A stretch of 62,029 nt of DNA, taken from the NCBI GenBank assembly GCA_964491125.1, contig CAZBFJ010000002.1, forward strand, positions 1-62,029, read 5' to 3'. Both the position numbers and the translations under genes were made by a program. The stretch comes from an uncultured Myxococcales bacterium. Its GTDB lineage: Bacteria; Myxococcota_A; Polyangia; Fen-1088. Of this stretch, positions 4,391-33,293 are shown one piece after another. The notes beneath the pieces were generated by a model that saw only the letters and a program-made list of their open reading frames with translations, was not told the DNA's origin and did not search any database. Numbering within the stretch: the stretch's first letter is position 1; every line of letters begins with the position of its first letter.

Positions 4391-4567
4391 GGGCCGAGAG
4401 TAACAGCCGAGTGCCGGCCTGTCAGCAATGTGGCGCCCGCCGGGCCGGTGTTGAAAGACCGACAGCAGACCTGTTGAGCTCCTGACACCTACCAGCCCGC
4501 ACCTCTGCCGTGCCGAGTATTTTCCAGCACTTACAGTCTCGCGCGGCCTGGATCGCCCATTGCTGCA

Positions 4568-5314: not shown

Positions 5315-5315
5315 G

Positions 5316-6650: not shown

Positions 6651-6857
6651 ATGACCCACGAGACCGACGCCTACGACGACAGCGCGCTCACCACCATGGA
6701 GCACAAGCTCCGTGAATCGCTTGCTCGCGCGCAGGCCAGCGCCGAGGGCCGCCTGCAGGGGCTTTCGACCCGGCTGCTCAAGCATCCACTGGCCTCCCTC
6801 GTGGTGGCATTCCTCGCCGGCCTTGGCGTGGCCCGGCTACTGCAGAAGCTCGAATAG
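6651..6857 (+). CDS. Small C-tail-anchored membrane protein, YqjD/ElaB (DUF883)-like
   Basis: 68 aa with a helical N-part and a single C-terminal TM (PLASLVVAFLAGLGVARLL). GAGAGGA lies upstream of the ATG. Confidence 0.6.
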   Translation: MTHETDAYDDSALTTMEHKLRESLARAQASAEGRLQGLSTRLLKHPLASLVVAFLAGLGVARLLQKLE

Positions 6858-6859
6858 CC

Positions 6860-7162
6860 ATGAAGACCAGAGGCGCCATGAGGAAGCATCCGGCCGAGAA
6901 GCTCGACCCGGCGCTCGGCCCGACGGACCCCCGCGGCCGTTTCGCCGAGATTCGCGCGCGCGTCGTCGCGCGCTTCAAGGAGAGCCCACTGCTGTATGCG
7001 GGCATCGCGGCCGGCGCCGGCTTCGTCCTGGGCGGGGGCCTCGCGACACCGACGGCTCTGCGGGTCTTCCGCAAGAGCGCGCTGCTCGCCCTGCAAGCGA
7101 CCGTGGTGCCGTTGCTGTTGTCTCGGCTGCAGGACGCGGTCTCGGCGAACGCGGAGGAGTAG
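6860..7162 (+). CDS. Hypothetical small membrane protein
   Basis: 100-codon ORF immediately after the previous gene, with a Gly/Ala-rich TM segment (LLYAGIAAGAGFVLGGGLA). Confidence 0.5.
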   Translation: MKTRGAMRKHPAEKLDPALGPTDPRGRFAEIRARVVARFKESPLLYAGIAAGAGFVLGGGLATPTALRVFRKSALLALQATVVPLLLSRLQDAVSANAEE

Positions 7163-8937: not shown

Positions 8938-9003
8938 GCTGAAGTCCGTTACGCACAGCGGCTGGTACGGAGTTTGATTGCACAACAAGAGCAGGAGGTC
9001 ACC

Positions 9004-9531
9004 TTGGACAAGGCAAGAGACAATCGGAACCCCGTGTGCCTGCCGGCGCCGTCGCAAGCCGCCAAGAGAGTGCCACGCGCACCCGAGGCAATCGGGCCGC
9101 CCTCGCTGGCTCAGGGCGCGAACGCGTCGGCGCTGGCTGCAGCGCTGCCGCCGAGCGCCCAGGACCTCTCGACCGTCGAGCTGGTCAAGAGCATCACGTC
9201 GGAGATGGGGCACCTCGTGCGCAAGCAGGTGGAGCTCGCGAAGACCGAGGTCAAGGCCGACCTCAAGGCCGAGGCGAAGGTGCTGGGCGGCCTCGGCATC
9301 GCGGCGCTCGCCGCTTTGGTGACCTTGAACCTCGTGTTCGTCACGGCCGTGCTGGCGCTCGGACAAGCGATGCCGGGCTGGGCCGCGGCGCTCGTGGTGG
9401 CGGCGGTCACCGCGCTCGCGAGCGCGGTGGTGGCTTCCGTCGCCTGGCGTAAGCGTGTCCGTTCGCCGCTGGCCAGGACCGGGCGAACGCTGCGGGAAGA
9501 CTTCCAGTGGACAAAGGAACGATTGGCGTGA
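9004..9531 (+). CDS. Phage-holin-family / YqjE-like membrane protein
   Basis: The motif VELVKSITSEMGHLVRKQVELAKTEVK is followed by two TM helices. AGGAGG lies 5 nt upstream of an in-frame TTG at 9004 (the track ORF starts at 8974). Confidence 0.7.
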   Translation: MDKARDNRNPVCLPAPSQAAKRVPRAPEAIGPPSLAQGANASALAAALPPSAQDLSTVELVKSITSEMGHLVRKQVELAKTEVKADLKAEAKVLGGLGIAALAALVTLNLVFVTAVLALGQAMPGWAAALVVAAVTALASAVVASVAWRKRVRSPLARTGRTLREDFQWTKERLA

Positions 9532-9959
9532 GCGAGCTCGACGCGAACGACCGGGCGGCGGTCATCGAGAAAGAGATCCAGGCGATCCGCGGAAACCTGG
9601 ACGGTCTGGTGAGGGAACTCGACCATCGCCGGCATCAGCTCCATCCCCTGCGAGCGTTTCGCAACCATCCGCTCGCGTTCGTCATCGCGGGCGTCGTGGT
9701 CGCGGCCGCGGTGACCGCCGGCGTTTCGATCGGGCGCGCCCGACGACGGGAGCAGAGCTCCTGGCGAGCACGGGGAAAGCGCCTGGGGTCGGCACTGGGC
9801 CGATGGGTCGAGAGACGGCCGGCGGAGGTGATTGTCCAGAAGCCGGGCCTTGGCACCAAGGTGCTCGGGGCGGCGGCCAGCGCGACCGCCGCCATGGTGG
9901 CTCGCCGCTTGGCCGCGAAGCTCCTCGAACCGCGCCAGGCTCGCGTTTCCGGGCAGTGA
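9528..9959 (+). CDS. DUF3618-like membrane protein
   Basis: The GTG start overlaps the upstream stop (GTGA). An N-terminal helical IEKEIQAIRGNLDGLVRELDHR segment is followed by a TM helix. Confidence 0.55.
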   Translation: MSELDANDRAAVIEKEIQAIRGNLDGLVRELDHRRHQLHPLRAFRNHPLAFVIAGVVVAAAVTAGVSIGRARRREQSSWRARGKRLGSALGRWVERRPAEVIVQKPGLGTKVLGAAASATAAMVARRLAAKLLEPRQARVSGQ

Positions 9960-10040
9960 CCTGCCGCCGCGCGGTTACCGCGGAGTAACCGCACGCGGCG
10001 ACGTGCCACCGCGGTGTCTCGTGCCCGGGCGCCCGGGCGC

Positions 10041-10056
10041 TGGCTCGCTTCTGGCA
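10041..10056 (+). promoter_or_regulatory. Candidate sigma54 (-24/-12) promoter
   Basis: TGGCTCGCTTCTGGCA has the GG and GC dinucleotides with canonical spacing. It lies 57 nt upstream of the glsB-like ATG. Confidence 0.4.
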
Positions 10057-10111
10057 AGAGACGCTCGCGCGGGACGACAGATCCCGCCTGGTCTACCGAA
10101 AAGGAGAACCC

Positions 10112-10372
10112 ATGCACATCCTGTGGACGCTGATTGTCGGCCTGGTCGTCGGAGCCCTGGCCAAGCTCATCATGCCGGGTCGCGACCCCGGCGGAATCAT
10201 CCTGACCATGGTGCTCGGCATCGTCGGGGCGTTCGTCGCGCGCTTGCTGGGCAATGCCGTCGGCCTCTATCGCGAAGACGCCACGGGACCTGGCCTGGTT
10301 GCCTCGGTGATCGGTGCGCTCATCGTGCTCGGGATCTACCGGCTGGCGGTCCGCCGCCGTCGGCTCACCTGA
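10112..10372 (+). CDS. GlsB/YeaQ/YmgE family stress-response membrane protein
   Basis: MHILWTLIVGLVVGALAKLIMPGRDPGGIILTMVLGIVGAFV is the typical transglycosylase-associated family sequence. GGAGAA RBS present. Confidence 0.9.
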   Translation: MHILWTLIVGLVVGALAKLIMPGRDPGGIILTMVLGIVGAFVARLLGNAVGLYREDATGPGLVASVIGALIVLGIYRLAVRRRRLT

Positions 10373-10383
10373 CCGAGGCGTTC

Positions 10384-10716
10384 ATGCCCAACTACACCAA
10401 CTCGCTGTGGACGCTGACGCCGGAGAGTCGCGTCTATCCCGCGTTCCAGGGGACTCTCTCGGTCGATGTCGCCGTCATCGGCGGCGGCATCACCGGCGTC
10501 ACGGCGGCCCGCTTGCTCAAGGACGCCGGGCTGCGGTGCCACGTGCGCTGGAACACGACGGAGAAGAGTTGGGACTGCCCGTGCCACGGCAGTCGCTTCG
10601 ATTCACGGGGGAGGGGGTTGAATGGCCCGGCGGTCGCACCGCTGGCGGTTCGCAACGACGTCCTGCTCGAGGAGGAGTCGGCCAAGCCGGTGCCTCGCCG
10701 CTCGCAATCGCGGTAG
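10384..10716 (+). pseudogene. Remnant of an FAD-dependent oxidoreductase / Rieske fusion gene with a large in-frame internal deletion
   Basis: The FAD dinucleotide fold start (DVAVIGGGITGVTAARLLKDAGL) is joined directly to the distal Rieske half-motif (RCHVRWNTTEKSWDCPCHGSRF). The whole catalytic domain and the first Cys-x-His box are absent. Confidence 0.65.
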
Positions 10717-10762
10717 TCAGTGAGACGTTGACGCGACCAGCGAGCGGGAGCATCAAAGGGGC

Positions 10763-11839
10763 ATGGGTACAGGTCGAGCGTCCCGTCGCTTCTTCTTCAT
10801 CCTTCTCATCGCGGCCGCGATTCTCTTCGCCTATATCGTCCGGCCCATCGCGAGCGCGCTCTTCCTGGCCGCCACGCTGGCAGGGGTGCTCTGGCCCGTC
10901 CAGCGTCGCCTCTCGCGCCGGCTGCGCGGCCGGCGGGGGTTGTCGGCGGGGATCCTCGTGGTCGGCCTGATCGTGATCATCATCGGGCCGACCGTCGCCC
11001 TGTCCTCGGTGGTCATCAGCGAGGGCCGCCGGGGGGTGGCCTTCATCTCGCGCATCGTGCGCAGCGAGAGCATCGGCGACGTGCTCTCGCGCTTGCCACC
11101 CGCGGTGGGCAAGCCGGCCAAGCGCATGCTCGACCGCCTGCCGGTCGAGGACGAGCAGCTGACGGAACAGCTACGGGAAAAGGTGGTGGCCCAGGGGGGC
11201 AACGCCGCCGCTGCCGTGGGTGCCACGCTGTCCGCCACGGGGAGCATCCTGTTTCACACGGCCATGATGCTCATCGCCTTCTACTTCCTGCTGCTCCAAG
11301 GAGACCAGCTCGTCGGGTGGATCGACGATCTGTCGCCCCTTCGGCAGGGACAGACGCGCGAGCTTCTGGCCGAGTTCAAGCGCGTCTCCTATGCCGTCAT
11401 CCTGTCGACCATCCTCACCGCGTGCGTTCAGGCCATCGCGGCGCTCGTCGGCTACCTCATCGCCCAGGTTCCGAACCCGCTGTTCTTCACCGCGATCACG
11501 TTCGTCGTCGCGTTCATTCCCGCCATCGGCGCGGGCTCGGTGTGCCTCCTCGTCGCATTGCTCGTGTTGCTGACGGGCCATCCCTACGCGGCGGCATTCC
11601 TCGCCATCTGGGGCCTGACGGTGGTCGCCTTGGTCGACAACTTGATCAAGCCGCTGCTCATCAAAGCCGGCATGCAGATGAACGGCGCCGTCGTCTTCTT
11701 TTCCCTGATCGGTGGACTCGCCGCCTTCGGGGCCGTGGGCCTCCTCCTCGGCCCGCTCATCGTTGCCTTGCTGCTCTCCCTTCTGCGCATGTACCAAAGG
11801 GACAGGGCGACGATCGACGCCGACGCGACGCCGTCCTAG
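10763..11839 (+). CDS. AI-2E family transporter (PerM/UPF0118)
   Basis: 358 aa polytopic membrane protein with the family-typical FYFLLLQGDQL..., AFIPAIGAG and DNLIKPLL segments. Confidence 0.85.
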   Translation: MGTGRASRRFFFILLIAAAILFAYIVRPIASALFLAATLAGVLWPVQRRLSRRLRGRRGLSAGILVVGLIVIIIGPTVALSSVVISEGRRGVAFISRIVRSESIGDVLSRLPPAVGKPAKRMLDRLPVEDEQLTEQLREKVVAQGGNAAAAVGATLSATGSILFHTAMMLIAFYFLLLQGDQLVGWIDDLSPLRQGQTRELLAEFKRVSYAVILSTILTACVQAIAALVGYLIAQVPNPLFFTAITFVVAFIPAIGAGSVCLLVALLVLLTGHPYAAAFLAIWGLTVVALVDNLIKPLLIKAGMQMNGAVVFFSLIGGLAAFGAVGLLLGPLIVALLLSLLRMYQRDRATIDADATPS

Positions 11840-12046
11840 CGCTACTGATTGAGATTCGCCTTCGAGAGGCGGGCGATAAGCCGGGGCGGGGGCAAGGAGG
11901 GCCGAGAACCGGACCGGAATGTACTGCCGTACTTGAGGACCGGAAGCGCAGGCCCGACGCCGCCCCCGACCCGGATCATCGCCCGTCGGTGATTCGAAGA
12001 ATTGAACCAGTAGTGCTAGCCCCGAGAGCCGCGCCATTCCGTGCGG

Positions 12047-12331
12047 TCAGGAGCGGGAACGACTCTTGCGCGCGCGGGTCGTGTCCTTCTCCTCCGTCGT
12101 GGCCCGCGCGCGGAGCGCCTTGCCCACGCGACCCTTCCCGCCGACCTTCACGCCGTCCTGGCGCGCCTTGGACAACCCGATGGCGATGGCTTGCCTGCGC
12201 GACTTCGCCGAGCCCTGTCCGCGTTTCAGCTTTCGGACCTGCTCGCGGACGAAGGGCCCGGCCTGGGTGCTCGGGCGCTGGCCGCGGCGTTTACGGGAGC
12301 GCGATTGCCGCCTGGTGTTCTCCTTGGGCAT
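12047..12331 (-). CDS. Small highly basic protein, DUF6496-like
   Basis: 94 aa containing PSTQAGPFVREQV...AKSRRQAIAIGLSKARQDGVKV. A strong GGAGG lies upstream of the ATG at 12331. The rest of the 532-aa track ORF is antisense to the sigma54 activator gene. Confidence 0.65.
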   Translation of the reverse strand: MPKENTRRQSRSRKRRGQRPSTQAGPFVREQVRKLKRGQGSAKSRRQAIAIGLSKARQDGVKVGGKGRVGKALRARATTEEKDTTRARKSRSRS

Positions 12332-12374
12332 GGTTGAGCCTCCTTGGTTGTGGCCAATTTGGCGGTTTGGCCAA

Positions 12375-12390
12375 TGCAAGCCGCCTACCA
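12375..12390 (-). promoter_or_regulatory. Candidate sigma54 (-24/-12) promoter
   Basis: The minus strand reads TGGTAGGCGGCTTGCA. It lies ~45 nt upstream of the ATG of the small basic protein gene. Confidence 0.55.
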
Positions 12391-12496
12391 AGTGGACTGG
12401 GGCTCGCCGCGCGATTGCTTCGGCCTGGTTTCGCATCAGGACTTCGCCCGTGCTTGCCGCCGATCGACGTGCTACATCTTCGACTCGGTGGCGATC

Positions 12497-13948
12497 ATGA
12501 AGGTACTGGTCATCGACGATGAGGCGTCCTTGCGCTCCGCGATCGCGGAGGTCGTGCGCGACGCGGGCCACGAGGTCGTCGAAGCTGGCGATGAAGGCGG
12601 TGTGGCGCAAGAGCTCGTCGATCGCGGGGATTTCGATCTCGTGATCAGCGACGTGCGTATGCCGGGTCTCGACGGCATGGCCCTCTTCCGACGCGCTCGC
12701 ACGGTTGCCCCTTTCATGGACTTCATCCTCATGACGGCGTTTGGAGACGTCGCGCAGGCGGTGGCCGCACTCAAGGAAGGCGCCGCGGACTACCTCACCA
12801 AGCCCTTCGACGTGGACGAGCTTCTGCATCAGATCAGCCGCATCGAAAGCGCCCGCCTGATGCGCGCCGAGCTGACGCAGGCCCGGCAAGCCTTGGCCCA
12901 GCGCCCGCCACGCAACCGCTTGGTCGGCGAGTCGCCGCAGATGCTCAAGCTCCAGTCGCGCATCGAGATGGTGGCGCAGAGTGAAGCCGCCGCGCTGGTG
13001 CATGGCGAAAGTGGCACGGGCAAGGAGCTGGTCGCGCGGTTGTTGCACGATCGTGGCCCACGGGCCGCCGGGCCGTTCATCGCGGTCAACTGCGGCGCCT
13101 TCCCCGAGACGTTGATCGAGGCCGAGCTCTTCGGGTTCGAGCGCGGGGCCTTCACCGGCGCGGTCAAGCGCCGAGATGGACGCTTCAAGGCGGCCGATCG
13201 TGGCACCCTGTTTCTCGACGAGGTTGCCGAGCTGCCGCTCTCGGCCCAGGCCAAGCTCTTGCGTGTCCTCGAGGAGGGGACCTTCGAGCCCATCGGCACC
13301 AACACGACCGTCAAGGTCGACGTCAGGCTGATCTCGGCGACCCACCGTGACCTGCGCCAACGTACGGCGGCCGGGCTCTTCCGCGAGGATCTCTTCTACC
13401 GCATCAACGTGCTCGACCTGTCGTTGCCCCCCCTGCGCGAGCGGGAGGGCGATCTGCCGCTGCTCATCCAGTTCTTCCTCGACGGGTTCGGCAACGGCTC
13501 GGGCCGGCGCAGGGCGCCCAGACTGTCCCCGGACGCGTTCACCGCACTCACCGCGTACTCGTACCCGGGAAACGTCCGCGAGCTCGCGCACGCCATCGAG
13601 CACGCGGTGGTGCTGGCCGGCGGCGGCACCATCACGCTCGACCACCTACCGGGCCCCATCGCCGAGGCTGCGAACCTGAATCCGCGGGTCGAGCCGCAGG
13701 CCCCCGCCAGCAGCGTGTCGGCCGCGACGCCCACGCGGCTCGCCGATGCGGTGCGGGAGTTCGAGAAGGCGCACCTGCGACGGGTGCTGGCCGCGGCGGG
13801 CGGCAAGCGCGTGCGCGCCGCCGAGATGCTGGGTATCTCGCGCAAGACACTGTGGGAGCGACTGCGCGACTACGAGGTCGAGGAAGCGCAGAGCCGGGCG
13901 AGCGGGGGCGAAGGCGCCATGAACGGCGCCCCGACCTCCACCTCCTGA
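12497..13948 (+). CDS. Sigma54-dependent response regulator (NtrC-type enhancer-binding protein)
   Basis: Receiver domain (MKVLVIDDE..ISDVRMPGLDG..KP). AAA+ sigma54-interaction domain (GESGTGKE and the GAFTGA loop in ERGAFTGAV). C-terminal Fis-type HTH (RAAEMLGISRKTLWERL). Confidence 0.92.
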   Translation: MKVLVIDDEASLRSAIAEVVRDAGHEVVEAGDEGGVAQELVDRGDFDLVISDVRMPGLDGMALFRRARTVAPFMDFILMTAFGDVAQAVAALKEGAADYLTKPFDVDELLHQISRIESARLMRAELTQARQALAQRPPRNRLVGESPQMLKLQSRIEMVAQSEAAALVHGESGTGKELVARLLHDRGPRAAGPFIAVNCGAFPETLIEAELFGFERGAFTGAVKRRDGRFKAADRGTLFLDEVAELPLSAQAKLLRVLEEGTFEPIGTNTTVKVDVRLISATHRDLRQRTAAGLFREDLFYRINVLDLSLPPLREREGDLPLLIQFFLDGFGNGSGRRRAPRLSPDAFTALTAYSYPGNVRELAHAIEHAVVLAGGGTITLDHLPGPIAEAANLNPRVEPQAPASSVSAATPTRLADAVREFEKAHLRRVLAAAGGKRVRAAEMLGISRKTLWERLRDYEVEEAQSRASGGEGAMNGAPTSTS

Positions 13949-13968
13949 TGTGCGGGGACCCCCGCTTC

Positions 13969-16473
13969 CTACGCACCAGCCTTGGCGGCGTCCACCAGCT
14001 CCAGCACGTCGCGACCCAGGCCTTGCTGGACATCGGGTAGCTCGCGCCAGGGGTCCTTGCGCCGGAGGCGCTCGGCGACGTTCAGGACCGAGTAGGGGGC
14101 GCCGGGGTCGAACGCGGCGAGCTCGTTCCACGCGAGGGGCACCGACACGGGGGCGCCAGGCCGGGAGCGGGGCGAGTAGGCTGCCACCGCGGTGGCACCG
14201 CGCGCGTTGCGCAGGTGATCGACGTAGATCCTGCCCGCGCGCTTGGCCTTGGTGGCGACGGCCAGGTAGCGCCTGGGGCTGTCCGCGGCCATGGCTTGCG
14301 CCACCGCCTTGCAGAAGGCTCGTGCCGGCTGCCAGCCGAAGCGCGCGCCGTCGCGCCGCAGGGGCACCACTACGTGGAGTCCCTTGCCGCCCGTGCTCTT
14401 GACGAAGCTTTCGAGGCCGAGGCGGCGCATCCGCTCGCGCACCTCCTGGGCGGCCTCCACGACCGCGGGCCACGCGACGTCGGGAGCGGGATCGAGATCG
14501 AAGACCAGGCGGTCGGGCGCCTCGGGCTCGTCGGCGAGCGCGCCCCAGACGTGTACCTCGAGGACGCCGAGCTGGGCCAGACCCACCAAGCCGGCGGCGT
14601 CACGGAGGAAGAAGTGCTGGGCCGTCTTGCCGTCGGCGCGGATGGACACGGGCACGAGCCCCGGAACGCGGTCGCGCTGGAGGTGTTTTTGGTAGAAGCA
14701 GCTCCGGTGTTGTCCGTCGGGGCAACGGACCAGCGTCAACGGACGGTTCGCGACGTGCGGGAGCATGGCGGACGCGACCTTCCGGTAGTAGTCCGCGAGT
14801 TGACCCTTGGTGATGCCCACGTCGGGATAGAGCACCCGCTCGGGGTGGGTGATGGCGGGCGCGTCGGCCACCGACTCGACGGGCTGGGCCGGCTCGGGCC
14901 TGACCTCCTTGGCCGGCTTGTCCTCGCGCAGGCCGTGGAACACCGCCTGGCGGACCTTGCCGTCGTCGGTGAAGCCGGCGAACGCGATCTCCGCGACCAG
15001 CGTCGGCTCGAGCCAGCGCACGCCGCGGGCCGCAACGCCACGGGGTGGGTCGGCGAACGGCGGATCCTTTCGCTCGAGGGGCGCCAGCTTGCGTTCGAGC
15101 TCGCGCAGCGAGGCCTCCGAGAAGCCCGTCCCCACCTTGCCCGCGTAGCGCAGCTCGCCCTTTCGGTAGACCCCGAGCAGGAGGGCCCCGAGGTGTTGCC
15201 GAGAGCCGCGCGGGGCGCTGAAGCCGCCGACCACGAGCTCTTGCCGAGCCGCGCACTTGGCCTTGAGCCAGGCGTCGCCCCGGCCGGCGCGGTAGGTGGC
15301 GTCCCGCCGCTTCGACACGAGCCCCTCGAGCCCGAGCTGGCAAGCCTGTGCGTGGGCGGCGGGCCCGTTGCCGACGAGGTGGTCGGAGTAGCGGATCGCG
15401 GCGGAGGCTCGCACGGCGAGCAGCTCGCGCAGAAGCTCCTTGCGCCGGTCCAGCCGGCAGCCCCGCAGATCCCAGCCGTCGAGGTACAGGAGGTCGAAGA
15501 CGAAGTACGCGAGCTCGGCGGCGCGCGTGTCCTCGGCGAGGGCATTCTGCAGCGCCTGGAAGCTGCTGTGGCCGCGTTCGTCGAGGGCCACCATCTCGCC
15601 GTCGAGGACGGCCTGGCCAAGCCGAGCCTTGGCGAGAGCGCGCGCCAGGGTGGCGAAGCGTGCCGTCCAGTCGAGTCCGTTGCGCGTGAAAAGCTCGACC
15701 TTGTCCCCTTCGACGTGCGCCAGGATGCGGTACCCGTCGAGCTTGATCTCGTGGAACCAGGAGTCCCCGTCGGGAACCTTGAGGGTCGGCCGGGCGAGCT
15801 GACAGGGCAGCGCCGCGTCTGGAAAGGAAGCGCGCCGGGCGCCTGCGATGGTGGCGAGATCGGGCGGCGCATCCTTGGCCCGCGGATTGGCGGGCGTGCC
15901 GCGATCGGCCTGGCGAGCGATCGCCGGCATGGTTCGTCCCGAGACCACGCTCGCGTCCTCCTGGGTGATGTCGCGTGTGGTGCTCGCCTCGTCGTCGCTA
16001 CCCTTGAAGAGGAGCCACGACGGCTTGTCGCCGCCGGCCTTGCCTGTCCCCTTCGTGCGCACGAGGTGCCAGGAGCCTCGCAGGCGCTTGCCCTCGAGGC
16101 GAAACTTGAGGACCCCGTTGCGGTAGCTCTCGCGTGCATCCCCCTCGGGGATCCAGCGTCCCTGGTCCCAGATCATCACCGTGCCGCCGCCATACTCACC
16201 CTGCGGGATGGTGCCCTCGAACCCCCCGTATTCGACCGGGTGGTCCTCGGTCTGTACCGCGAGGCGTTTGACCTTGGGATCGAGGCTCGGGCCCTTGGGG
16301 ACGGCCCAGCTGAGGAGCACGCCATCGAGCTGGAGGCGGAAGTCGTAGTGCAAGCGCCGCGCGGCGTGTTTCTGCACCACGAAGGAGAAGCCTTCGCCGG
16401 CGGCGAGGCGGCCGCGCGGCTCGCGCGTCTTCCCGAAGCTGCGCTTCTTCCGGTAGGTCGCCAGCGAGGGCAT
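13969..16473 (-). CDS. ligD: ATP-dependent DNA ligase D (phosphoesterase-ligase-polymerase)
   Basis: N-terminal PE domain (FVVQKHAARRLHYDFRLQLDG). Ligase KxDG motif (EIKLDGYRI). C-terminal primase-polymerase domain (LVRCPDG...). Confidence 0.95.
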   Translation of the reverse strand: MPSLATYRKKRSFGKTREPRGRLAAGEGFSFVVQKHAARRLHYDFRLQLDGVLLSWAVPKGPSLDPKVKRLAVQTEDHPVEYGGFEGTIPQGEYGGGTVMIWDQGRWIPEGDARESYRNGVLKFRLEGKRLRGSWHLVRTKGTGKAGGDKPSWLLFKGSDDEASTTRDITQEDASVVSGRTMPAIARQADRGTPANPRAKDAPPDLATIAGARRASFPDAALPCQLARPTLKVPDGDSWFHEIKLDGYRILAHVEGDKVELFTRNGLDWTARFATLARALAKARLGQAVLDGEMVALDERGHSSFQALQNALAEDTRAAELAYFVFDLLYLDGWDLRGCRLDRRKELLRELLAVRASAAIRYSDHLVGNGPAAHAQACQLGLEGLVSKRRDATYRAGRGDAWLKAKCAARQELVVGGFSAPRGSRQHLGALLLGVYRKGELRYAGKVGTGFSEASLRELERKLAPLERKDPPFADPPRGVAARGVRWLEPTLVAEIAFAGFTDDGKVRQAVFHGLREDKPAKEVRPEPAQPVESVADAPAITHPERVLYPDVGITKGQLADYYRKVASAMLPHVANRPLTLVRCPDGQHRSCFYQKHLQRDRVPGLVPVSIRADGKTAQHFFLRDAAGLVGLAQLGVLEVHVWGALADEPEAPDRLVFDLDPAPDVAWPAVVEAAQEVRERMRRLGLESFVKSTGGKGLHVVVPLRRDGARFGWQPARAFCKAVAQAMAADSPRRYLAVATKAKRAGRIYVDHLRNARGATAVAAYSPRSRPGAPVSVPLAWNELAAFDPGAPYSVLNVAERLRRKDPWRELPDVQQGLGRDVLELVDAAKAGA

Positions 16474-16482
16474 GCCGCAAGC

Positions 16483-17403
16483 CTAGGCGGTGCGCCGAAG
16501 GCGTCGCGACCGGCCGCGCGCCGAGCTCACGCGCCGGGTGCTGCGGGTCTCGGCGCGTGCGGGCGTCGCTGCCTCGGAGGCCCGCGGTGCCTCGTTCCGG
16601 CCCCCTCGCTTGCGGACCTCGACGCTTTGGCGCAATAGGGACATCAGATCGACGACGCCCTCGCGCTCGCGCCGCGGGGGCGGCGGCTCGCTGCCCTCGG
16701 TGACCGAATTGATCTGGCCCGCGGCCACCTTCTCCTCGATGAGCTTCATCAGGTCCTCGCGATAGGTGTCGTGGTACTTCTCGGGCGTCCAGGGTCCGCT
16801 CATGCCCTCGATGAGCTGCTCGGCCATCGCCTGCTCCTGCGGCGTGACCGCCGGGATGCGGCCGAGGTCGCCGACCGTCTCCTCCTTGGTCCGCAGCTCG
16901 TCCGAGAAGCGGAGCAGCTCGAGCACCAACCCGTCCGGTTCGGCGAGCAGCGCGGCGAGGTGTTGCCGCGAGTGCAGCACCAACGTGGCGATGCCGGCGC
17001 GCTCCGTGCGCTCGAGGGCCGCGCGCAAGACCTCATAGGCCTTGGCCCCCTGCTTCTTCGGCTTCACGAAGTAGGGGCGGTCGAAGTACGTGGGGGAGAT
17101 GTCTTTCCTCGGCACGAAATCCTGGATGTCGATGGTCTGCGTGGCTTCGACGTTGGCTTTCAGGAAGTCCGCAGGCGTCACGACCACGAACTCGCCTTTG
17201 GCGTGCTCGTGACCCTTGACGATGTTGTCGTAGGGCACGAGCTCTCCCGTCTTCTTGTTGATGCGCTGGTAGCCGACCGGCGACAAGTCCCGCTTGTCGA
17301 GCAGGGTGAAGGACAGCTCGCGCCGCTCCTCGCCCGGGTAGAGCTCCACCGGAATCTGCACGAGCCCGAAACTGATCCCGCCGTTCCATGTCGCGCGAGG
17401 CAT
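16483..17403 (-). CDS. ku: Ku DNA end-binding protein (NHEJ)
   Basis: The MPRATWNGGISFGLVQIPVELYPG start and the Ku core are present. It lies 9 nt upstream of ligD on the same strand. Confidence 0.95.
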   Translation of the reverse strand: MPRATWNGGISFGLVQIPVELYPGEERRELSFTLLDKRDLSPVGYQRINKKTGELVPYDNIVKGHEHAKGEFVVVTPADFLKANVEATQTIDIQDFVPRKDISPTYFDRPYFVKPKKQGAKAYEVLRAALERTERAGIATLVLHSRQHLAALLAEPDGLVLELLRFSDELRTKEETVGDLGRIPAVTPQEQAMAEQLIEGMSGPWTPEKYHDTYREDLMKLIEEKVAAGQINSVTEGSEPPPPRREREGVVDLMSLLRQSVEVRKRGGRNEAPRASEAATPARAETRSTRRVSSARGRSRRLRRTA

Positions 17404-17419
17404 AGGGATTCATGTCCAA

Positions 17420-17435
17420 AGCAAGCCGCGTTCCA
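17420..17435 (-). promoter_or_regulatory. Candidate sigma54 (-24/-12) promoter for ku-ligD
   Basis: The minus strand reads TGGAACGCGGCTTGCT. The -12 GC lies ~18 nt upstream of the ku ATG, and no Shine-Dalgarno is visible, which would give a near-leaderless mRNA. Confidence 0.55.
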
Positions 17436-17574
17436 GTTCCCGTCCAAATGTGGAGCACGCCGCTCCTCGCTACTGCCCGGGGATTGATGCTCGCGGGCAC
17501 ACGCGCGTTACCTCCCCCTCGCTTTACGTTACCGATCCGGGACAAGCTTGGCGGTCGGGGCTGGCTGAGGCGCG

Positions 17575-17590
17575 GGGCACGGCGGTTGCA
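17575..17590 (+). promoter_or_regulatory. Candidate sigma54 (-24/-12) promoter for the YflT-like stress gene
   Basis: GGGCACGGCGGTTGCA matches TGGCACG-N4-TTGCA at 15 of 16 defined/spaced positions. It lies ~100 nt upstream of ATG 17691. Confidence 0.6.
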
Positions 17591-17690
17591 CCTTGGGCGG
17601 ATTCCGCTCTTCGACCGTTGCGCGCGCCCGAAGGGCGGAGCGTTTGGGCGCCGCGCTGTCCATCCACCACATAACACGGGAGAAGACACC

Positions 17691-18263
17691 ATGGCCGGAA
17701 AGAACACCGTCGTATACGGGATGTGCAACAACCTTCCTCAGCTCGAAACTGCCGTCGATGCTTTGCGGCTGGCGGGATTCCGCAGGGACGACATCTCGAC
17801 CCTGTTCCCCGACAAGAAGTCCTCGCGTGACTTCGCGATCGAGAGCAAGACGAAGGCACCCGAAGGTGCCGCGACCGGCGGCGCCTCCGGCATCGTCGCG
17901 GGCGGCGCGCTCGGCTGGCTGGTCGGGATCGGGGCCCTCGCGATTCCCGGGCTCGGTCCCTTCGTTGCCGCGGGTCCGCTGGTGGCGGCCTTGGCCGGCG
18001 CCGGGGCCGGCGGGGCTCTGGGGGGCCTGGCCGGCGCATTGGTCGGCCTTGGTATGCCCGAGCTCGAGGCTCGCCGATACGAGGGGCTGCTCAAGCGCGG
18101 CGGCATCTTGCTGTCGGTCCACGCGGACGACTCGGAGTGGGCCAGCCGCGCCAAGAGGATCCTCGAGGAGTGCCAGCTTTCCGACATCTCGTCGGCAGGC
18201 GAGGCGCCCGCGGACACCAAGTCACCGATCGGCGACCCGAGCGTCCGCTCGTCGGCCCGCTGA
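17691..18263 (+). CDS. General stress protein (YflT-like N-domain plus glycine-zipper membrane segment)
   Basis: N-terminus VVYGMCNNLPQLETAVDALRLAGFRRDDISTLFPDK. A Gly/Ala-rich zipper (GGASGIVAGGALGWLVGIGALAIPGLGPFVAAGPL) follows. GGGAGA RBS present. Confidence 0.7.
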   Translation: MAGKNTVVYGMCNNLPQLETAVDALRLAGFRRDDISTLFPDKKSSRDFAIESKTKAPEGAATGGASGIVAGGALGWLVGIGALAIPGLGPFVAAGPLVAALAGAGAGGALGGLAGALVGLGMPELEARRYEGLLKRGGILLSVHADDSEWASRAKRILEECQLSDISSAGEAPADTKSPIGDPSVRSSAR

Positions 18264-18324
18264 ATCCGCCAGGGGGCGCGGACGGGCTTTCGAGCTCGCC
18301 CGCGCCCGCGTTCTGCCGTCGCGC

Positions 18325-19455
18325 CTACCGCGACGGCGGTTGCACGTTGATCGTCTTTGGCTTGCCGTGGCTGGGCAGCGTCCGCGACTGCGCCCGGGTG
18401 GGCCGCGGCTCGTCCTCGGCGCCCGTTCGCACGGTCACGGGTGCGTTGCGCTTCGCCGATTCGTGGATGGCCTCGATGATCCGCAGATCGGCCAGCCCGT
18501 CGCGGCCCGAGGGCTCGGGGTCCTGATCGCGACGGATGCACTTGGCGAAGTAGCTGATCTCGGCGGCGATCTGATCGCGCTTGCGGAAGTCCTTCCCCTT
18601 CGTCTCCCCCTTCGTTCCGCGCGTGACCTCGAGGCGCAGCGGCCGCGCGTGGTCATAGGCCGGATCGAGGCGTAACCGCCCCTCGGTGCACACCACGTCG
18701 TAGACGCTTTCCTTGGCAGCGCCGAAGCCGCACACGAACGAGGCCAGGCGCTCGTCCGGAAAGCGCATGACCACCGCCATCTGCTCGTCCACCTCGCGAA
18801 AGCGCTCGTCGCCCGGCAGGCTCGCGCGCATGGCCATCACCTGGGTCGGGTCGGTTCCGAAGAGGTATCGGGCTGCGTTGATACAGTAGATCCCGATGTC
18901 GTAGATGGGCCCGCCGCCGCGCTCGGCGGAGATCCGGATGTTCCCTTCGGTCACCTGCTGCGAGAACGCGGACGAGAAGTACCGCGCCTCGCCGAGCTCC
19001 CTGTCCTTGATGAGCTCCACCGCCGCCAGGTTGGCCTCGTCGAAATGGAGCCGGTACGCGATCATCAGCTTCACGCCGGCGCTGTCGCAGGCCGCGATCA
19101 TTCGTTCGCCCTCCTGGCTCGTGACCGCCATGGGCTTCTCGCACAGAACGTGTACCTTGCGGGCGGCGGCACGTACCGTGTACTCGCAGTGCAGGTCGTT
19201 CGGCAGCGCGATGAACACGGCGTCGACCCCCCCTCGCTCGAGGTACGCGTCGTACTCCTCGTACGGCAGGGCGTCCTTGATCCGGTAGCGCTTCTTCATC
19301 TCGGCGAGCTTGGTGGCATCGCTCGAGAAGAGAGCCACCAGCTGCGCCGGCTTCGCCGTCGCAAAGGCGGGCAGGATCGCCGTTTGCGCGAAGTGCCCGA
19401 GCCCCACCACGGCGAAGCGCACGGCTTCTCCCGTCCCATTTCGTTGGTTGCTCAT
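18325..19455 (-). CDS. Gfo/Idh/MocA family NAD(P)-dependent oxidoreductase
   Basis: Rossmann start VRFAVVGLGHFAQ and the EKPMA motif (VLCEKPMAV). GGAG RBS precedes ATG 19455. Confidence 0.85.
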   Translation of the reverse strand: MSNQRNGTGEAVRFAVVGLGHFAQTAILPAFATAKPAQLVALFSSDATKLAEMKKRYRIKDALPYEEYDAYLERGGVDAVFIALPNDLHCEYTVRAAARKVHVLCEKPMAVTSQEGERMIAACDSAGVKLMIAYRLHFDEANLAAVELIKDRELGEARYFSSAFSQQVTEGNIRISAERGGGPIYDIGIYCINAARYLFGTDPTQVMAMRASLPGDERFREVDEQMAVVMRFPDERLASFVCGFGAAKESVYDVVCTEGRLRLDPAYDHARPLRLEVTRGTKGETKGKDFRKRDQIAAEISYFAKCIRRDQDPEPSGRDGLADLRIIEAIHESAKRNAPVTVRTGAEDEPRPTRAQSRTLPSHGKPKTINVQPPSR

Positions 19456-19483
19456 GAGTCCGTCTCCTTTGCGGCCGGCCCGA

Positions 19484-19499
19484 TGCAAGCGCGGGTCCA
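19484..19499 (-). promoter_or_regulatory. Candidate sigma54 (-24/-12) promoter
   Basis: The minus strand reads TGGACCCGCGCTTGCA. It lies ~30 nt upstream of the oxidoreductase ATG. Confidence 0.5.
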
Positions 19500-19710
19500 T
19501 CAGGCCGAACGTGGAGCAGCGCGGTCCGCCGCGCCCGCGCACCCGCGCACGCCCCCGTTACGGTGACGTGACGGGCTTCGTCCAGAGATCGCTACCTCCC
19601 TCTCCCGATTGTCGTGCCGCGGAACGTGGGTTTCGCGTGACCGCCCGCATAGCGGCTGCTTACGACGCTGAGCTCACGTCGGCACGCATCTTGAAGAATG
19701 CCGGGCACGC

Positions 19711-21784
19711 ATGCCCCTGGCCAAGCCGCTTCCGACCGCCCAGCTCGTTCGCGCCGGCTGGACGAAGGGCGATCCTCCCGAGGCCTGCGCGGAGCGCGAG
19801 TGGCTGGTCACCAACGGTCTCGGCGGCTACGCCTCCGGCACGATCGCCGGCGTGGCGACCCGTCGCCACCACGCCTTGCTGGTCGCCGCCCTGCCAAACC
19901 CGTGGGGGCGCACCGTGGTGTTCGACCACCTGTCGGAAACCGTGCGCCTGTCCGACGGCAAGGAGCTCGCGCTTCCGGCCGACCCGTGCGAGGGCGTGTC
20001 TTCGGACGCGGCCCACGCGCTCGATCGCTTCTACCTCGAGGCCGGATTGCCCGTGTGGCTCTATCGCGCGGGTGACTTGCTCGTCGAGAAGCGCGTCGTG
20101 CTCGCCTATCGGCAGAACACGGTCTTTCTCCGCTACCGGGTGTTGGCCGTCGCGGGAACCGATCCGGAGGGACTGATCTTGACCCTGCGGCCGGCCATGT
20201 GTTTTCGCCGGCACGACGCTCCCCTGTCGCCCTCTCTCGACACGTACACCCTCTCGCTCACGGGCGATCGCTTCGAGGTGTCCACGCCCGCGGCGCTCCC
20301 GTCGCTGAAGATGCGCGTCGAGGGCGACGCTCCCACCTTTCGCGCCTTTCCCGCCTGCCAAGACACCGTCGACTACCGCTGGGAGGCGGCACGCGGCTAC
20401 GAGGCGCGAGGCGCGTGGTGGAGCCCGGGCTACTTCGAGGTTCGCCTGACCTCCGAAACCCCGGCTTTCCTCGTCGCCTCGAGTGAGACCTGGGAGATCA
20501 TGAACGGCGTCCCGCCCGCCCGTGCCTGGGACTACGAGGCGCAGCGCCGCGCGCGTCTCCTGCATGCCGTCCCGGCGGCCGCGGGCGATCCCGTGGTGGC
20601 CGAGCTCGCCCTCGCCGCCGACGCGTTCGTCATCGTGCCCGCCGGTCGCGTCGAGGACGCGGCCCGCGCTCGGGCGCGCGGTCTCGATCTGCGCTCGGTG
20701 ATTGCCGGCTATCACTGGTTCACCGACTGGGGGCGCGACACCATGATCAGCCTCGAAGGGCTGACCCTGGTACCTGGCCGTTTTCCGGCGGCGCGCTTCG
20801 TGCTACACACCTTCGCTCACTACGTGCGGCAGGGCCTGGTGCCGAACCTCTTCCCGGAGGGGGCGCGGGAAGGGCGCTACAACACGGCCGACGCCAGCTT
20901 GTGGTTCTTCCACGCGGTCGACCGGTACCTGGCTTACACCGACGATCGCGAAACCCTGCGCTTGCTGCTGCCCACGCTCGAGGCCATCGCGCGGGCGCAT
21001 GTCGATGGCACCGCCTTCGGCATCCACGTCGATCCCACGGATGGCCTCCTGTCACAGGGCCAGGACGGCTACGCCCTCACCTGGATGGACGCCCTCTGCG
21101 ACGGCTGGGTGGTGACGCCCCGACGGGGCAAGGCGGTCGAGATCAACGCCCTTTGGTTCAATGCCTTGACCTTGCTCGCCGACTGGGTGGGGACCGAGCG
21201 CGACGGGGACGCGTCCTGGTACCGCGAGCTGGCCGGGCGGGCACGCGCATCGTTCAACCGGTCGTTCTGGGACGCGGAGCGTGGCTACCTCGTCGACGTG
21301 ATCGGGCTCGACGGCGCGGCGGATCCCGCCCTGCGACCGAACCAGCTCTTCGCCATCTCGCTGGCGAACCCAATCTTGGATTCGTCGCGCTGGCAGGCGG
21401 TGGTCGACAAGGTGGGCGCGGAGCTCCTTACGCCCTTCGGGCTCCGCAGCCTTGCCGCCGACCATCCCGACTTCAAGCCCACCTACCATGGCGACCTGCG
21501 CACGCGGGACGCCGCCTACCATCAAGGCACGGTGTGGAGTTGGCTCCTCGGCCCTTACATCGACGCCTTCCTCAAGGTTTATCCCGGCGAGCGACGACGA
21601 GCCCGCTCGTTCCTCGCGGGTCTGCGCGAGCACCTCGGGCAGGCGTGCATCGGCCAGGTTTCCGAGATCTTCGATGCCACTCCTCCGTTCCTGCCGCGCG
21701 GCTGCGTCGCGCAGGCCTGGGGCGTGGCGGAGCTCCTGCGCGCTTGGCGCATCACCTCCGAGCCACCCGAGAAAGACGAACACC

Positions 21785-21798
<14 letters not shown>
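19711..21798 (+). CDS. Amylo-alpha-1,6-glucosidase / archaeal-type glycogen debranching enzyme
   Basis: The N-terminal EWLVTNGLGGYASGTIAGVATRRHHALLV (GDE_N) pattern and a C-terminal (alpha/alpha)6 GDE_C region (GYHWFTDWGRDTMISL). Confidence 0.85.
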
Positions 21799-23991
<2,193 letters not shown>

Positions 23992-23995
<4 letters not shown>

Positions 23996-31621: not shown

Positions 31622-31634
31622 AAAGGACCGCACC

Positions 31635-33293
<1,659 letters not shown>

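Follow-up and report, generated by a model that had tools for sequence, protein, structure and literature searches.

The window, the whole 62,029-nt stretch of DNA analysed, comes from a soil myxobacterium-like bacterium of the class Polyangia (Myxococcota). It carries a gene for an NtrC-family response regulator of the enhancer-binding protein (EBP) type, ku and ligD, a trehalose operon and several genes for small proteins. Sigma-54-type promoter sites stand before many of these genes, and copies of a 16-bp dyad lie in some of their control regions. The features are as follows.

4549-4564, plus strand: sigma-54-type site TGGATCGCCCATTGCT, 14.3 bits, intergenic and oriented, 100 nt before HAD hydrolase and NTP-transferase genes (4664-6119)
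6600-6615, plus strand: GA-type site TGGCCCATCCCTTGAA, 8.3 bits, before the gene (6651-6857) for a 68-aa membrane-anchored protein
8963-8978, plus strand: GA-type sigma-54 promoter TGGTACGGAGTTTGAT before a holin-X family gene (9004-9531) and 9507-9959, conserved in related locus L118
9974-9989, no strand: perfect dyad GTTACCGCGGAGTAAC, proposed UAS of the glsB promoter, 51 nt upstream of the latter
10041-10056, plus strand: sigma-54-type promoter TGGCTCGCTTCTGGCA, 10.7 bits, intergenic and oriented, before glsB (10112-10372)
12375-12390, minus strand: strong sigma-54-type promoter TGGTAGGCGGCTTGCA, 15.5 bits, before the DUF6496 gene (12047-12331)
12497-13948, plus strand: EBP gene, proposed activator of the regulon
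17420-17435, minus strand: sigma-54-type promoter TGGAACGCGGCTTGCT, 16.3 bits, before ku (16483-17403) and ligD (13969-16473)
17507-17543, no strand: proposed UAS consisting of a dyad and an additional half-site, GTTAC-N16-GTTACCGATCCGGGAC, in the intergenic region from which ku and the 17692 gene diverge
17575-17590, plus strand: sigma-54-type promoter GGGCACGGCGGTTGCA, 13.4 bits, before the gene (17692-18263) for a 190-aa glycine-rich protein
19484-19499, minus strand: sigma-54-type promoter TGGACCCGCGCTTGCA, 10.0 bits, before a GFO/IDH/MocA oxidoreductase (GFO) gene (18325-19455)
19557-19572, no strand: dyad GTTACGGTGACGTGAC, proposed UAS common to the divergent GFO and GDE/trehalose promoters
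19680-19695, plus strand: GA-type sigma-54 promoter CGGCACGCATCTTGAA, 15 nt before the GDE gene, with a dyad 107 nt upstream
Trehalose operon: GDE (19711-21798), glgX (21845-23995), treY (23992-26862) and treZ (26948-28753)

Pfam confirms several gene identities that an earlier note had read from the letters, namely GlsB (Transgly_assoc), Ku, a three-domain LigD, the GFO/IDH/MocA oxidoreductase and the holin-X family protein, and also assigns GDE, GlgX, TreY and DUF6496. The labels "YflT-like" (17692-18263) and "yqjD-like" (6651-6857) are unconfirmed, as neither protein has a Pfam or NCBIfam match. The 6651 gene is followed by a gene at 6860-7162 and then by a DUF748 gene (about 7257-8399); its product shows 40% identity to that of the first gene in the ytxH operon of L118, an operon equipped with both a sigma-54 promoter and a dyad. 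A search of the window for Rfam families returned none.

All five GG-N10-GC 16-mers proposed earlier read letter for letter on the strands described, and each is intergenic and faces the next gene. Their distance to the start codon, previously given as 18-100 nt, measures 16-101 nt from the 3ʹ end of the 16-mer (55, 43, 16, 101 and 28 nt for 10041 plus, 12390 minus, 17435 minus, 17575 plus and 19499 minus, respectively). The weakest are the 10041 promoter, with a -12 region of TGGCA rather than TTGCA, and the 19499 promoter. Chance does not account for the sites. TGG-N8-TTGC occurs 16 times in the window against 5.3 expected. With a sigma-54 matrix whose frequencies approximate the published consensus, five oriented intergenic matches of at least 13 bits were observed against 0.15 expected in dinucleotide-preserving shuffles of the intergenic regions (n = 300), none of which reached five. 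At a threshold of at least 10 bits, six were observed against 0.92 expected. Two strong oriented sites, 4549 plus (upstream of the HAD gene) and 47336 plus, are thereby added to the earlier five. The three TTGA sites that had been set apart as weaker are indeed present (6600, 8963 and 19680); they are not a weak fringe but belong to the commonest conserved form.

The promoters of ku, the glycine-rich protein gene, GFO and holin-X are conserved among relatives, both in location and in sequence, amid intergenic DNA that has otherwise diverged. Before ku, the site reads TGGAACGGGAATTGCT in L109 (15 nt from the start), TGGAATGAACCTTGCT in L110 (15 nt) and TGGAACGGGACTTGCT in L111 (13 nt), and the spacer alone varies. 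In L109, where the orthologue of the 17692 protein is 78% identical, its gene is preceded at about 100 nt from the start by GGGCACGCTGGATGCA, and the L109 hemerythrin-GFO operon has CGGCCTGCGCCTTGCT and a dyad. L109, which was retrieved through Ku alone, carries an EBP orthologue, orthologues of the GFO and glycine-rich protein genes, and ku-ligD. Several of the promoters, those of ku and GDE included, lie 12-16 nt from the start codon, so their mRNAs are predicted to be leaderless or nearly so; the leaders predicted for ku (about 6 nt) and GDE, of about 5-6 nt, are unusual and contain no ribosome-binding site.

The dyad, GTYAC-N6-GTRAC, is conserved around EBP orthologue genes at about 20 loci. 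It occurs 18 times in the 270-kb orthologous set and twice in 1.04 Mb of control loci, a density about 35 times higher, and 66 loci around other EBPs are nearly devoid of it; the related loci are all metagenome assemblies chosen via the EBP or Ku, so these comparisons incompletely separate regulon-specific from clade-wide promoter preferences. When k-mers were ranked upstream of 19 GA-type sites, without any motif chosen beforehand, CGTAAC and CGTTAC came first, each at 9 of the 19 with about one expected. In the orthologous loci, pairs of GTWAC have no spacings other than 11, 20-21 and 31-32 bp, against a flat distribution in the 1.04 Mb of controls. The usual position of the dyad is 30-110 nt upstream of sigma-54-type promoters, with gaps clustering at 71-72 nt in L114-L116, and it directly adjoins the EBP gene in L005, L010, L109, L114-L116 and L118.

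With a dyad matrix trained on other loci and the window left out, the top three matches in the window are at 19557 (17.8 bits), 9974 (16.1 bits) and 17528 (15.2 bits); all three lie in control regions, which belong to four of the five promoters of the earlier note and to the trehalose operon. The glsB promoter has a second, weaker dyad at 9945-9960 (10.3 bits). In the ku UAS, the second half-site of the 17528 dyad is degenerate (GGGAC); the 21 + 11 bp arrangement recurs in L005, L007 and L010, and L109 has a GT(T/G)AC...GATC element at a similar position. The divergent region of L109 that corresponds to 19557 contains GTCACGTGGATGTGAC. The L118 holin-X gene is preceded at 51 nt by TGGTACGTTTCTTGAA, which has a dyad next to it, and the 8963 promoter region of the window has a GTTAC half-site only, at 8948. 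Near the 6600 site there are weak dyad-like elements only, at 6187 and 6206. For DUF6496, which the earlier note had counted among the targets, no dyad of at least 8 bits lies in the upstream region (12332-12496) and the gene adjoins the EBP gene in no relative; because of these two results, a link between DUF6496 and the EBP is unsupported.

The 12497-13948 product is an NtrC-family EBP with an intact GAFTGA loop, as first described: Pfam finds a REC domain, an AAA+ sigma-54 interaction domain and a Fis-type HTH (HTH_8), and the translation contains Asp52, the Walker A motif GESGTGKE, GAFTGA and the HTH. It scores under every NCBIfam equivalog cut-off. Orthologues of 53-82% identity occur in many Polyangia assemblies and form a large, uncharacterised orthogroup of that class; the best 80 genome matches are all MAGs, and none at orthologue-level identity is named Myxococcus. 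No histidine kinase or rpoN was found among the called genes of the window, in keeping with the earlier note. It is the layout of this genome that makes the EBP an orphan: elsewhere, its orthologues have MEDS-PAS, REC-PAS(-GAF) or CHASE3 histidine kinases as neighbours. In L005, GDE-treY-treZ come directly after the EBP orthologue; in L007 and L118, the orthologue is close to DUF748/holin-X. For the EBP gene of the window, neither a promoter nor a dyad can be recognised; several orthologues have them, and that of L109 stands behind a GA-type promoter with a dyad.

Together, the conserved promoters, the dyad that tracks the EBP orthologues and the gene co-occurrence in L109 support the local sigma-54 regulon of stress genes and ku-ligD proposed in the earlier note. 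With a probability of roughly three in four, the region belongs to a stress or dormancy-type regulon that depends on sigma-54 and is switched by the 12497-13948 EBP. A kinase with its gene in another part of the genome would phosphorylate the EBP, which would bind the dyads at 9974, 17528 (with the extra half-site at 17507) and 19557. Once oligomerised on these sites, it would open sigma-54 holoenzyme complexes, at the expense of ATP, at promoters lying 30-110 nt from the dyads. Of the three dyad regions, two would each serve a divergent promoter pair. The genes predicted to respond are glsB; ku-ligD together with the glycine-rich protein gene that diverges from it; and GFO with the divergent GDE-glgX-treY-treZ. 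Conservation makes the holin-X and 6651/DUF748 operons probable further members. The promoters take two forms, the canonical one with TTGC and one with TTGA at -12, which is the more frequent across the orthogroup.

Among the alternatives, the one that survives best, though it is unlikely, takes the sigma-54 promoters as real and the EBP as a mere neighbour, the dyad being bound by another factor (a repressor or co-regulator) or each promoter being served by a different EBP. EBPs are very numerous in Myxococcota (PMC12316311), the strong sites at 12390, 4549 and 47336 have no dyad, and the window's EBP gene lacks one. Moreover, in L007, L008, L009 and L021 the GTWAC repeats come after the promoter, close to the start codon, a placement that would fit a repressor. 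A protein co-inherited with the EBP could also be what binds the dyad. Against this stand the association of the dyad with one EBP orthogroup and not with other EBPs, its enhancer-like distances with the recurring gap, and its place directly beside the EBP gene in several relatives. Furthermore, the EBP-orthologue loci share no other gene for a DNA-binding protein with any consistency.

Slightly less likely still is that the TTGA sites are read by a specialised factor, such as a second RpoN paralogue paired with the EBP, so that TTGC and TTGA promoters would form two circuits. The dyad is strongly linked to GA/GT-type sites (18/36 vs 2/73 in controls) and weakly to GC-type sites (4/27 vs 2/55), and GA-type sites are rare around other EBPs, other Myxococcota loci included. 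Several rpoN genes occur in about 5% of genomes, with functional specialisation in Rhodobacter/Cereibacter (PMC12316311). However, the GA-type sites have a fully canonical -24 element and spacing, and their information is limited to the -24 and -12 positions. They share with the canonical promoter (TGGCAC-N5-TTGCW) the GG and the -12 TTG at fixed spacing, with TGGCAC or TGGTAC at -24. The ordinary sigma-54 of P. putida transcribes from TTGAAT -12 motifs in vitro, although its strongest promoters have TTGCAT only (PMC11997794), whereas TTGA(A/T) is the commonest natural form across the conserved regulon here. Dyads also serve GC-type promoters, namely those of ku, the glycine-rich protein gene, L118 ytxH (17.4 bits) and the rpoH-like genes of L008 and L021.

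That the sites are chance GG-N10-GC in GC-rich intergenic DNA, with unrecognised sigma-70 or ECF promoters as the real ones, is very improbable and already largely refuted: GG-N10-GC alone is common at 70% GC, the consensus with three mismatches allowed matches at the chance rate (126 against 117 expected), the scores of two of the five sites are no more than about 10 bits and an ECF sigma/anti-sigma pair is encoded at 38817-40249, but the excess over composition-matched shuffles, the constant start-codon distances of orthologous promoters despite varying spacers and the co-occurrence with the dyad all speak against it, and searches found no sigma-70-type hexamer pairs in 4-20 kb of the window and no sigma-32 or sigma-70 -10 box after the TTGAA sites.

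A sigma-54 regulon under an EBP is a well-known type of control, of which this region would be a new example. In Bacillus subtilis, ykoU/ykoV are under forespore sigma-G control, and Sinorhizobium meliloti ku/ligD are under general-stress RpoE2/EcfG control. As in the present proposal, Ku/LigD in those species belong to a dormancy, desiccation or general-stress regulon and not to SOS; they use a sigma-70-family alternative sigma factor, whereas the regulon proposed here would use sigma-54 and an ATP-dependent activator. The literature searched contained no case of NHEJ under sigma-54 control. The Bacillus sigma-B and enterobacterial RpoS regulons are alike in content (YtxH, GlsB/YmgE-type, DUF883/YqjD-like, Dps and trehalose synthesis), but their regulatory machinery is unrelated and the analogy is functional only.

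The NmpR, Nla28 and Nla6 regulons of M. xanthus have the following in common with the one proposed here: an activator of the REC-AAA+-HTH type, promoters of the sigma-54 type, more than one enhancer site in the few hundred bp before the promoter (dyad-symmetric for NmpR), autoregulation (here in several orthologues) and starvation- or stress-related targets (PMC11841059, PMC9765219). The architecture of the dyad agrees with that of known NtrC-like sites, which have 5-bp half-sites with about 5-6 bp between them and occur in several copies (PMC11841059). The recognition sequence differs, being GTYAC-N6-GTRAC here versus GCGCA-N5-TGCGC for NmpR and CT[C/G]CG[C/G]AG for Nla28, and the target set (NHEJ, trehalose, GlsB, YtxH and an RpoH-like sigma) is not described for these regulators. 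If the proposed control is true, DNA end-joining repair, trehalose synthesis and small stress proteins would be grouped behind one response-regulator switch.

The five GG-N10-GC 16-mers that the earlier note read as a cluster of sigma-54 promoters were all recovered on the strands it had assigned to them, and each is intergenic and oriented to the next gene. Two further sites, at 4549 and 47336, were absent from its list. At all of these positions the GG (-24/-25) and GC (-12/-13) dinucleotides are separated by 10 bp, and the flanks resemble TGGCAC-N5-TTGCW.

Sigma-54-type sites of the window (start of the 16-mer, strand, sequence, gene, distance from 16-mer to start codon, matrix score)
10041, plus strand: TGGCTCGCTTCTGGCA, before glsB, 55 nt, about 10 bits
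12390, minus strand: TGGTAGGCGGCTTGCA, before the DUF6496 gene, 43 nt, 15.5 bits
17435, minus strand: TGGAACGCGGCTTGCT, before ku-ligD, 16 nt
17575, plus strand: GGGCACGGCGGTTGCA, before the gene at 17692, 101 nt
19499, minus strand: TGGACCCGCGCTTGCA, before the GFO oxidoreductase gene, 28 nt, about 10 bits
4549, plus strand: additional site, before a HAD/NTP-transferase gene pair, 14.3 bits
47336, plus strand: additional site, 13.1 bits

Enrichment of such sites is evident by both pattern counts and matrix scores. In the window, which has a GC content of about 70%, TGG-N8-TTGC has 16 matches where 5.3 would be expected. The matrix covers 16 positions, with frequencies that are the author's approximation to the published consensus; the sites at 10041 and 19499 score lowest of the five first reported. 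Six of the eight matches of at least 13 bits lie in the intergenic 11% of the window, and all six face a gene, a bias that agrees with the promoter reading. Oriented intergenic matches at this threshold number 5, compared with 0.15 expected, and none of 300 shuffles reached 5; because the intergenic regions alone were shuffled, with dinucleotides preserved, the lower GC of intergenic DNA is controlled for. A consensus search with three mismatches allowed was too loose to inform, returning 126 matches against 117 expected and thus no enrichment. No sigma-70-type promoter was detectable in a scan of 4-20 kb of the window, and no Rfam family matched anywhere across it.

The activator gene at 12497-13948 encodes a protein in which the GAFTGA loop is intact, as had been claimed, and so are Asp52, Walker A and the HTH. 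Pfam (Response_reg, Sigma54_activat, AAA_lid_14, HTH_8) places it in the response-regulator class of NtrC-family enhancer-binding proteins (EBPs). It falls below the cut-offs of the NCBIfam equivalogs AtoC (443 vs 714), NtrC (423 vs 559), ZraR, GlrR and NtrX, and therefore belongs to an unnamed subgroup. The best 80 genome matches to the activator place the window's closest relatives among metagenome-assembled Polyangia/Myxococcales genomes; 14 of these loci (L001-L013 and L021, the orthologous loci) carry activators of 53-65% identity, while matches below about 45% look like paralogues. Synteny around the orthologues is partial: the L005 orthologue is followed directly by GDE-treY-treZ, that of L007 lies near DUF748, holin-X and 9507-type genes, and that of L010 lies near treY. 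Closer relatives of the activator (72-74% identity) are found in loci L114-L118.

In the orthologous loci, the predominant promoter has a different -12 element. C at -12 is near-invariant in sigma-54 promoters. TGGYAY-N5-TTGAW nevertheless occurs 9 times in 270 kb (the 14 orthologous loci plus the window) and once in the control set (66 loci of other EBP genes, 1.04 Mb), whereas the canonical TTGCW form occurs once in the former set and 19 times in the controls. When the pattern is loosened, 19 GA- or GT-type sites are counted in the orthologous set, compared with 2 in other Myxococcota/deltaproteobacterial loci (329 kb), and GC-type sites are about equal (11 vs 10). The activator's own gene has a GA-type site upstream in five loci (L002, L007, L009, L010 and L012). 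Within the window, the sites at 6600, 8963 and 19680 have GA instead of GC at -12; the earlier note had recorded them as weaker, and they are indeed present, but they share the form that predominates in the orthologous loci. TTGAA could also be read as the -35 box of a sigma-32 or sigma-70 promoter. However, a matching -10 element follows only 2/19 and 0/19 of the sites, respectively, and their information content is limited to the -24 and -12 positions, which argues that the GA-type site is a sigma-54-type promoter.

A second element accompanies these promoters. A k-mer search without a preselected motif covered 220 nt of sequence ahead of each of the 19 GA-type sites; CGTAAC and CGTTAC ranked highest, each occurring at 9/19 sites against about 1 expected. 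Pairs of GTWAC in the orthologous loci are spaced by 11, 20-21 or 31-32 bp only, multiples of the helical repeat, whereas their spacing in control loci is flat. The resulting 16-bp dyad, GTYAC-N6-GTRAC, is found at 18 positions in the orthologous set and at 2 in the 1.04 Mb of controls, a density about 35 times higher in the former. Both control dyads adjoin EBP genes that are among the best-scoring outside the orthogroup (41-43% identity); they lie in two Caldimicrobium MAGs, at 13032 of L015 (GTTACCTTTTGGTAAC) and 14484 of L017 (GTTACCGAGAAGTAAC), and no other control locus has one. The same DNA specificity may extend to a wider family. Across all loci, a strong dyad lies at most 230 nt upstream of 18/36 GA/GT-type matches, compared with 2/73 in controls, and upstream of 4/27 GC-type matches, compared with 2/55. 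Dyad and promoter are mostly separated by 31-117 nt, most often by 71-72 nt. In L114-L118, the activator gene and a divergent ytxH-DUF5670-REC operon flank a perfect GTTAC-N6-GTAAC dyad that stands 71-72 nt from a sigma-54 promoter (99 nt in L118), and the module of dyad plus sigma-54 promoter is present again at the AI-2E operons of L114 and L116.

Dyad symmetry, position upstream of promoters and co-occurrence with the activator gene are the features of an upstream activating sequence, and binding by the activator is predicted on these grounds. The pairs might alternatively be -35 and -10 elements of an ECF-type promoter (GTAAC-N15/16-(C)GTTAC), a reading disfavoured by the palindromic N6 core, its occurrence in both orientations and the fixed 71-72 nt gap to sigma-54 sites. 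NtrC-like regulators similarly recognise half-sites of 5 bp, separated by about 5-6 bp and frequently present in multiple copies, but the sites of the Myxococcus xanthus regulators NmpR (GCGCA-N5-TGCGC) and Nla28 (CT[C/G]CG[C/G]AG) are unlike GTYAC-N6-GTRAC (PMC11841059, PMC9765219).

A dyad matrix trained on 24 instances from other loci, with the window left out, gave its three best matches in the whole 62-kb window at 19557 (17.8 bits), 9974 (16.1 bits) and 17528 (15.2 bits). The first lies in the control region of the GFO gene and the divergent GDE/trehalose operon, the second in that of glsB, and the third in that of ku and the divergent gene at 17692. The next-ranked matches, at 9945 and 6206, are likewise beside promoter regions. 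The proposal that the sites form a regulon of the embedded activator is thus supported for four of the five promoters first reported. It gains no support at the DUF6496 promoter, upstream of which the matrix finds no match. DUF6496 adjoins the activator gene in no relative examined, the closest EBP relatives having other neighbours, and no orthologous context was found in which its two elements could be compared. The sites at 4549 and 47336 also have no dyad. EBPs are numerous in Myxococcota (PMC12316311), and these three sites, too, are probably sigma-54 promoters, with activators other than this one.

Conservation of the ku promoter was evident when the contigs of closer Ku relatives (61-73% identity), drawn from a large protein collection, were compared. 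In 3/3 contigs with a divergent upstream region, a high-scoring sigma-54 site is kept in place amid otherwise diverged intergenic DNA.

Sigma-54-type sites of ku in relatives (locus, sequence, distance to ATG)
L109: TGGAACGGGAATTGCT, 15 nt
L110: TGGAATGAACCTTGCT, 15 nt
L111: TGGAACGGGACTTGCT, 13 nt

Between these sites and that of the window, the spacer alone varies. The same conservation of elements but not of spacer is found for the gene at 17692 and the GFO gene in L109, and for holin-X in L118, where TGGTACGTTTCTTGAA matches the window's 8963 site. The Ku and LigD genes are also paired in L109; the LigD genes of L110 and L111 end at contig ends. In L112, one operon behind TGGCACGCGGTTTGTA contains a Dps-type ferritin gene and, after it, ku-ligD. 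L109 additionally encodes an orthologue of the 17692 protein (78% identity), its gene preceded by GGGCACGCTGGATGCA at about the 100-nt distance seen in the window, and a GFO orthologue (67% identity) in a hemerythrin-GFO operon behind CGGCCTGCGCCTTGCT. This contig also carries a perfect GTCAC-N6-GTGAC dyad and a partial activator orthologue (56% identity) behind the GA-type site CGGCACGGCTCTTGAA. Because L109 was retrieved via Ku and not via the activator, it lends independent support to the link between the two. No dyads were found in Ku-anchored metagenome loci of at most 51% identity. Among distant Ku genes, those of L086, L087, L100, L102 and L107 have sigma-54-like sites near the start codon: GGCAC-N5-NTGCW stands exactly 12 nt upstream of ATG in L086, L087 and L100, and a perfect TGGCACGGTGGTTGCA 34 nt upstream in L102. 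Though without close kinship to the window, these sites are suggestive, and sigma-54 control of ku may reach beyond the clade through other activators.

The ku promoter and the GDE promoter (15 nt from its start codon) have predicted leaders of only about 5-6 nt, with no ribosome-binding site. Placement 12-16 nt from the start codon recurs in relatives, at a small membrane-protein gene in L001, a 67-aa gene in L002, the genes divergent from ku in L109-L111, the sigma-factor and 487-aa genes of L114, and the distant Ku loci L086, L087 and L100; this recurrence argues for function. Near-leaderless promoters and the predominance of TTGA at -12 are unusual features that would be compatible with a dedicated promoter class or RpoN paralogue. 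The EBP orthogroup would then have co-evolved with promoters distinguished by A for C at -12 and often leaderless mRNAs, read by that paralogue or using a weakened -12 'lock' with different activation kinetics. Such a second, parallel sigma-54 channel, which we consider unlikely, would be dedicated to dormancy/desiccation functions, including NHEJ, in Polyangia. In a high-throughput in vitro study of Pseudomonas putida sigma-54, TTGAAT was a functional -12 motif beside TTGCAT, the strongest promoters having TTGCAT only (PMC11997794); this use in vitro makes ordinary sigma-54 a plausible reader of the TTGA sites.

By function, the genes centre on protection in general stress, desiccation or dormancy. 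Pfam confirmed GlsB/Transgly_assoc, an AI-2E transporter, DUF6496, the REC-AAA+-HTH_8 activator, Ku, GFO/IDH/MocA oxidoreductase, GDE, GlgX, TreY, holin-X and DUF748 in the window, as well as a three-domain LigD (LigD_N, DNA_ligase_A_M/C, LigD_Prim-Pol) whose gene adjoins ku, completing an NHEJ module. The labels "YflT-like" (17692-18263) and "yqjD-like" (6651-6857) were not borne out, as neither protein matches Pfam, even at E = 1, or NCBIfam; the L118 ytxH operon begins with a gene whose product is 40% identical to the 6651 protein, and a faint DUF883_C match (E = 0.059) was obtained only for the neighbouring 6860-7162. Among the window's called genes no rpoN was found, in line with the earlier note, and no histidine kinase. 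Its description of the activator as an orphan is right for the window, where no kinase is a neighbour, but relatives' loci hold kinase genes behind such promoters: one MEDS-PAS histidine kinase, REC-PAS(-GAF) kinases and one CHASE3 kinase. The lack of a neighbouring kinase is thus a matter of layout in the window's genome only. Also behind relatives' promoters are single REC proteins, hemerythrin, AI-2E transporters, YtxH, small membrane-anchored proteins, holin-X with TamB/DUF748, and an RpoH-subfamily sigma factor (NCBIfam 264.5 bits, cut-off 241). Homologues of these kinases, the RpoH-like sigma factor and hemerythrin were sought in the window, and none was found.

Other stress-related genes flank the region. 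These encode a Cu/Zn superoxide dismutase (1428-1949, minus strand) and, downstream with treZ, a Dps-type ferritin (30186-30683, plus strand) and groES/groEL (31334-33293, plus strand); an ECF sigma factor and zf-HC2 anti-sigma factor are encoded at 38817-40249 (minus strand). No strong oriented sigma-54 site or dyad lies upstream of the dismutase, ferritin, groES/groEL or ECF genes. Near glsB, a 110-aa ORF (10384-10716, plus strand) fuses a flavoprotein N-terminal FAD/NAD-binding motif (aa 27-54) straight to a Rieske C-terminal end (aa 59-88) and looks like the remnant of a larger oxidoreductase gene after internal deletion; its N-terminal 49 aa have a match near the activator orthologue of L003. 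Between the convergent AI-2E and DUF6496 genes, a gap of 207 bp holds an imperfect inverted repeat (11870-11893/11962-11985; 24 nt, 88% complementary, 68-nt loop), perhaps a terminator acting in both directions or else a small repeat element. Farther away, each of two segments has a second copy about 5 kb off, in exchanged order (56138-56297/61568-61727, 160 nt, 99%; 56464-56557/61474-61567, 94 nt, 97%); the segments span the 3ʹ end and downstream flank of a 109-aa gene (61568-61897). A reverse transcriptase gene (RVT_1, 58522-59715) sits between the copies, but the mismatches are not adenine-specific, against a diversity-generating retroelement. The same region has three or four copies of a pyrimidine-rich motif ending in TCCTCCCTGTTCATCC (56591-56677, 59576-59608, 60852-60938), two running on into CGTCACGCAAGGCG; its minus-strand reading is a purine-rich leader (GGATGAACAGGGAGGA...) that several minus-strand genes may share. 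For a 120-aa ORF (60913-61275, minus strand), the match to isocitrate/isopropylmalate dehydrogenase is confined to the C-terminal third (profile 237-348 of 348), and the ORF is therefore probably a truncated gene fragment.

The sequence elements are established here, with their enrichment, conservation and co-occurrence with the activator gene; we infer use of the promoters by sigma-54, binding of the dyads by the activator, and the inducing signal. A kinase encoded elsewhere in the genome would phosphorylate Asp52 of the activator, which would then bind the dyads, oligomerise and spend ATP remodelling the sigma-54 holoenzyme at promoters 30-110 nt away; a divergent promoter pair would be served at two of the three dyad regions. 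The machinery is a standard bEBP/sigma-54 system, and what is new is the newly defined binding site and target set of this activator orthogroup. Neither trehalose nor any ligase appears in a 2025 comparative survey of sigma-54 regulons (PMC12316311), and the literature searched held no paper tying NHEJ or ligD to sigma-54.

To our knowledge, control of error-prone end-joining expression is known for few model species only. In those species it is tied to sporulation or general-stress sigma factors. For a large group of soil myxobacteria that is mostly uncultured, the window and about 20 related loci offer a concrete circuit open to testing. In this circuit, one phosphorylation-controlled activator and a defined 16-bp site would join Ku-LigD to trehalose synthesis and, in relatives, would also govern small membrane stress proteins, Dps and an RpoH-like sigma factor. 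The dyad and promoter model is directly usable for regulon prediction in any Polyangia genome, and TTGA at -12, together with promoters 12-16 nt from start codons, provides natural material on the -12 element and leaderless translation outside model organisms.
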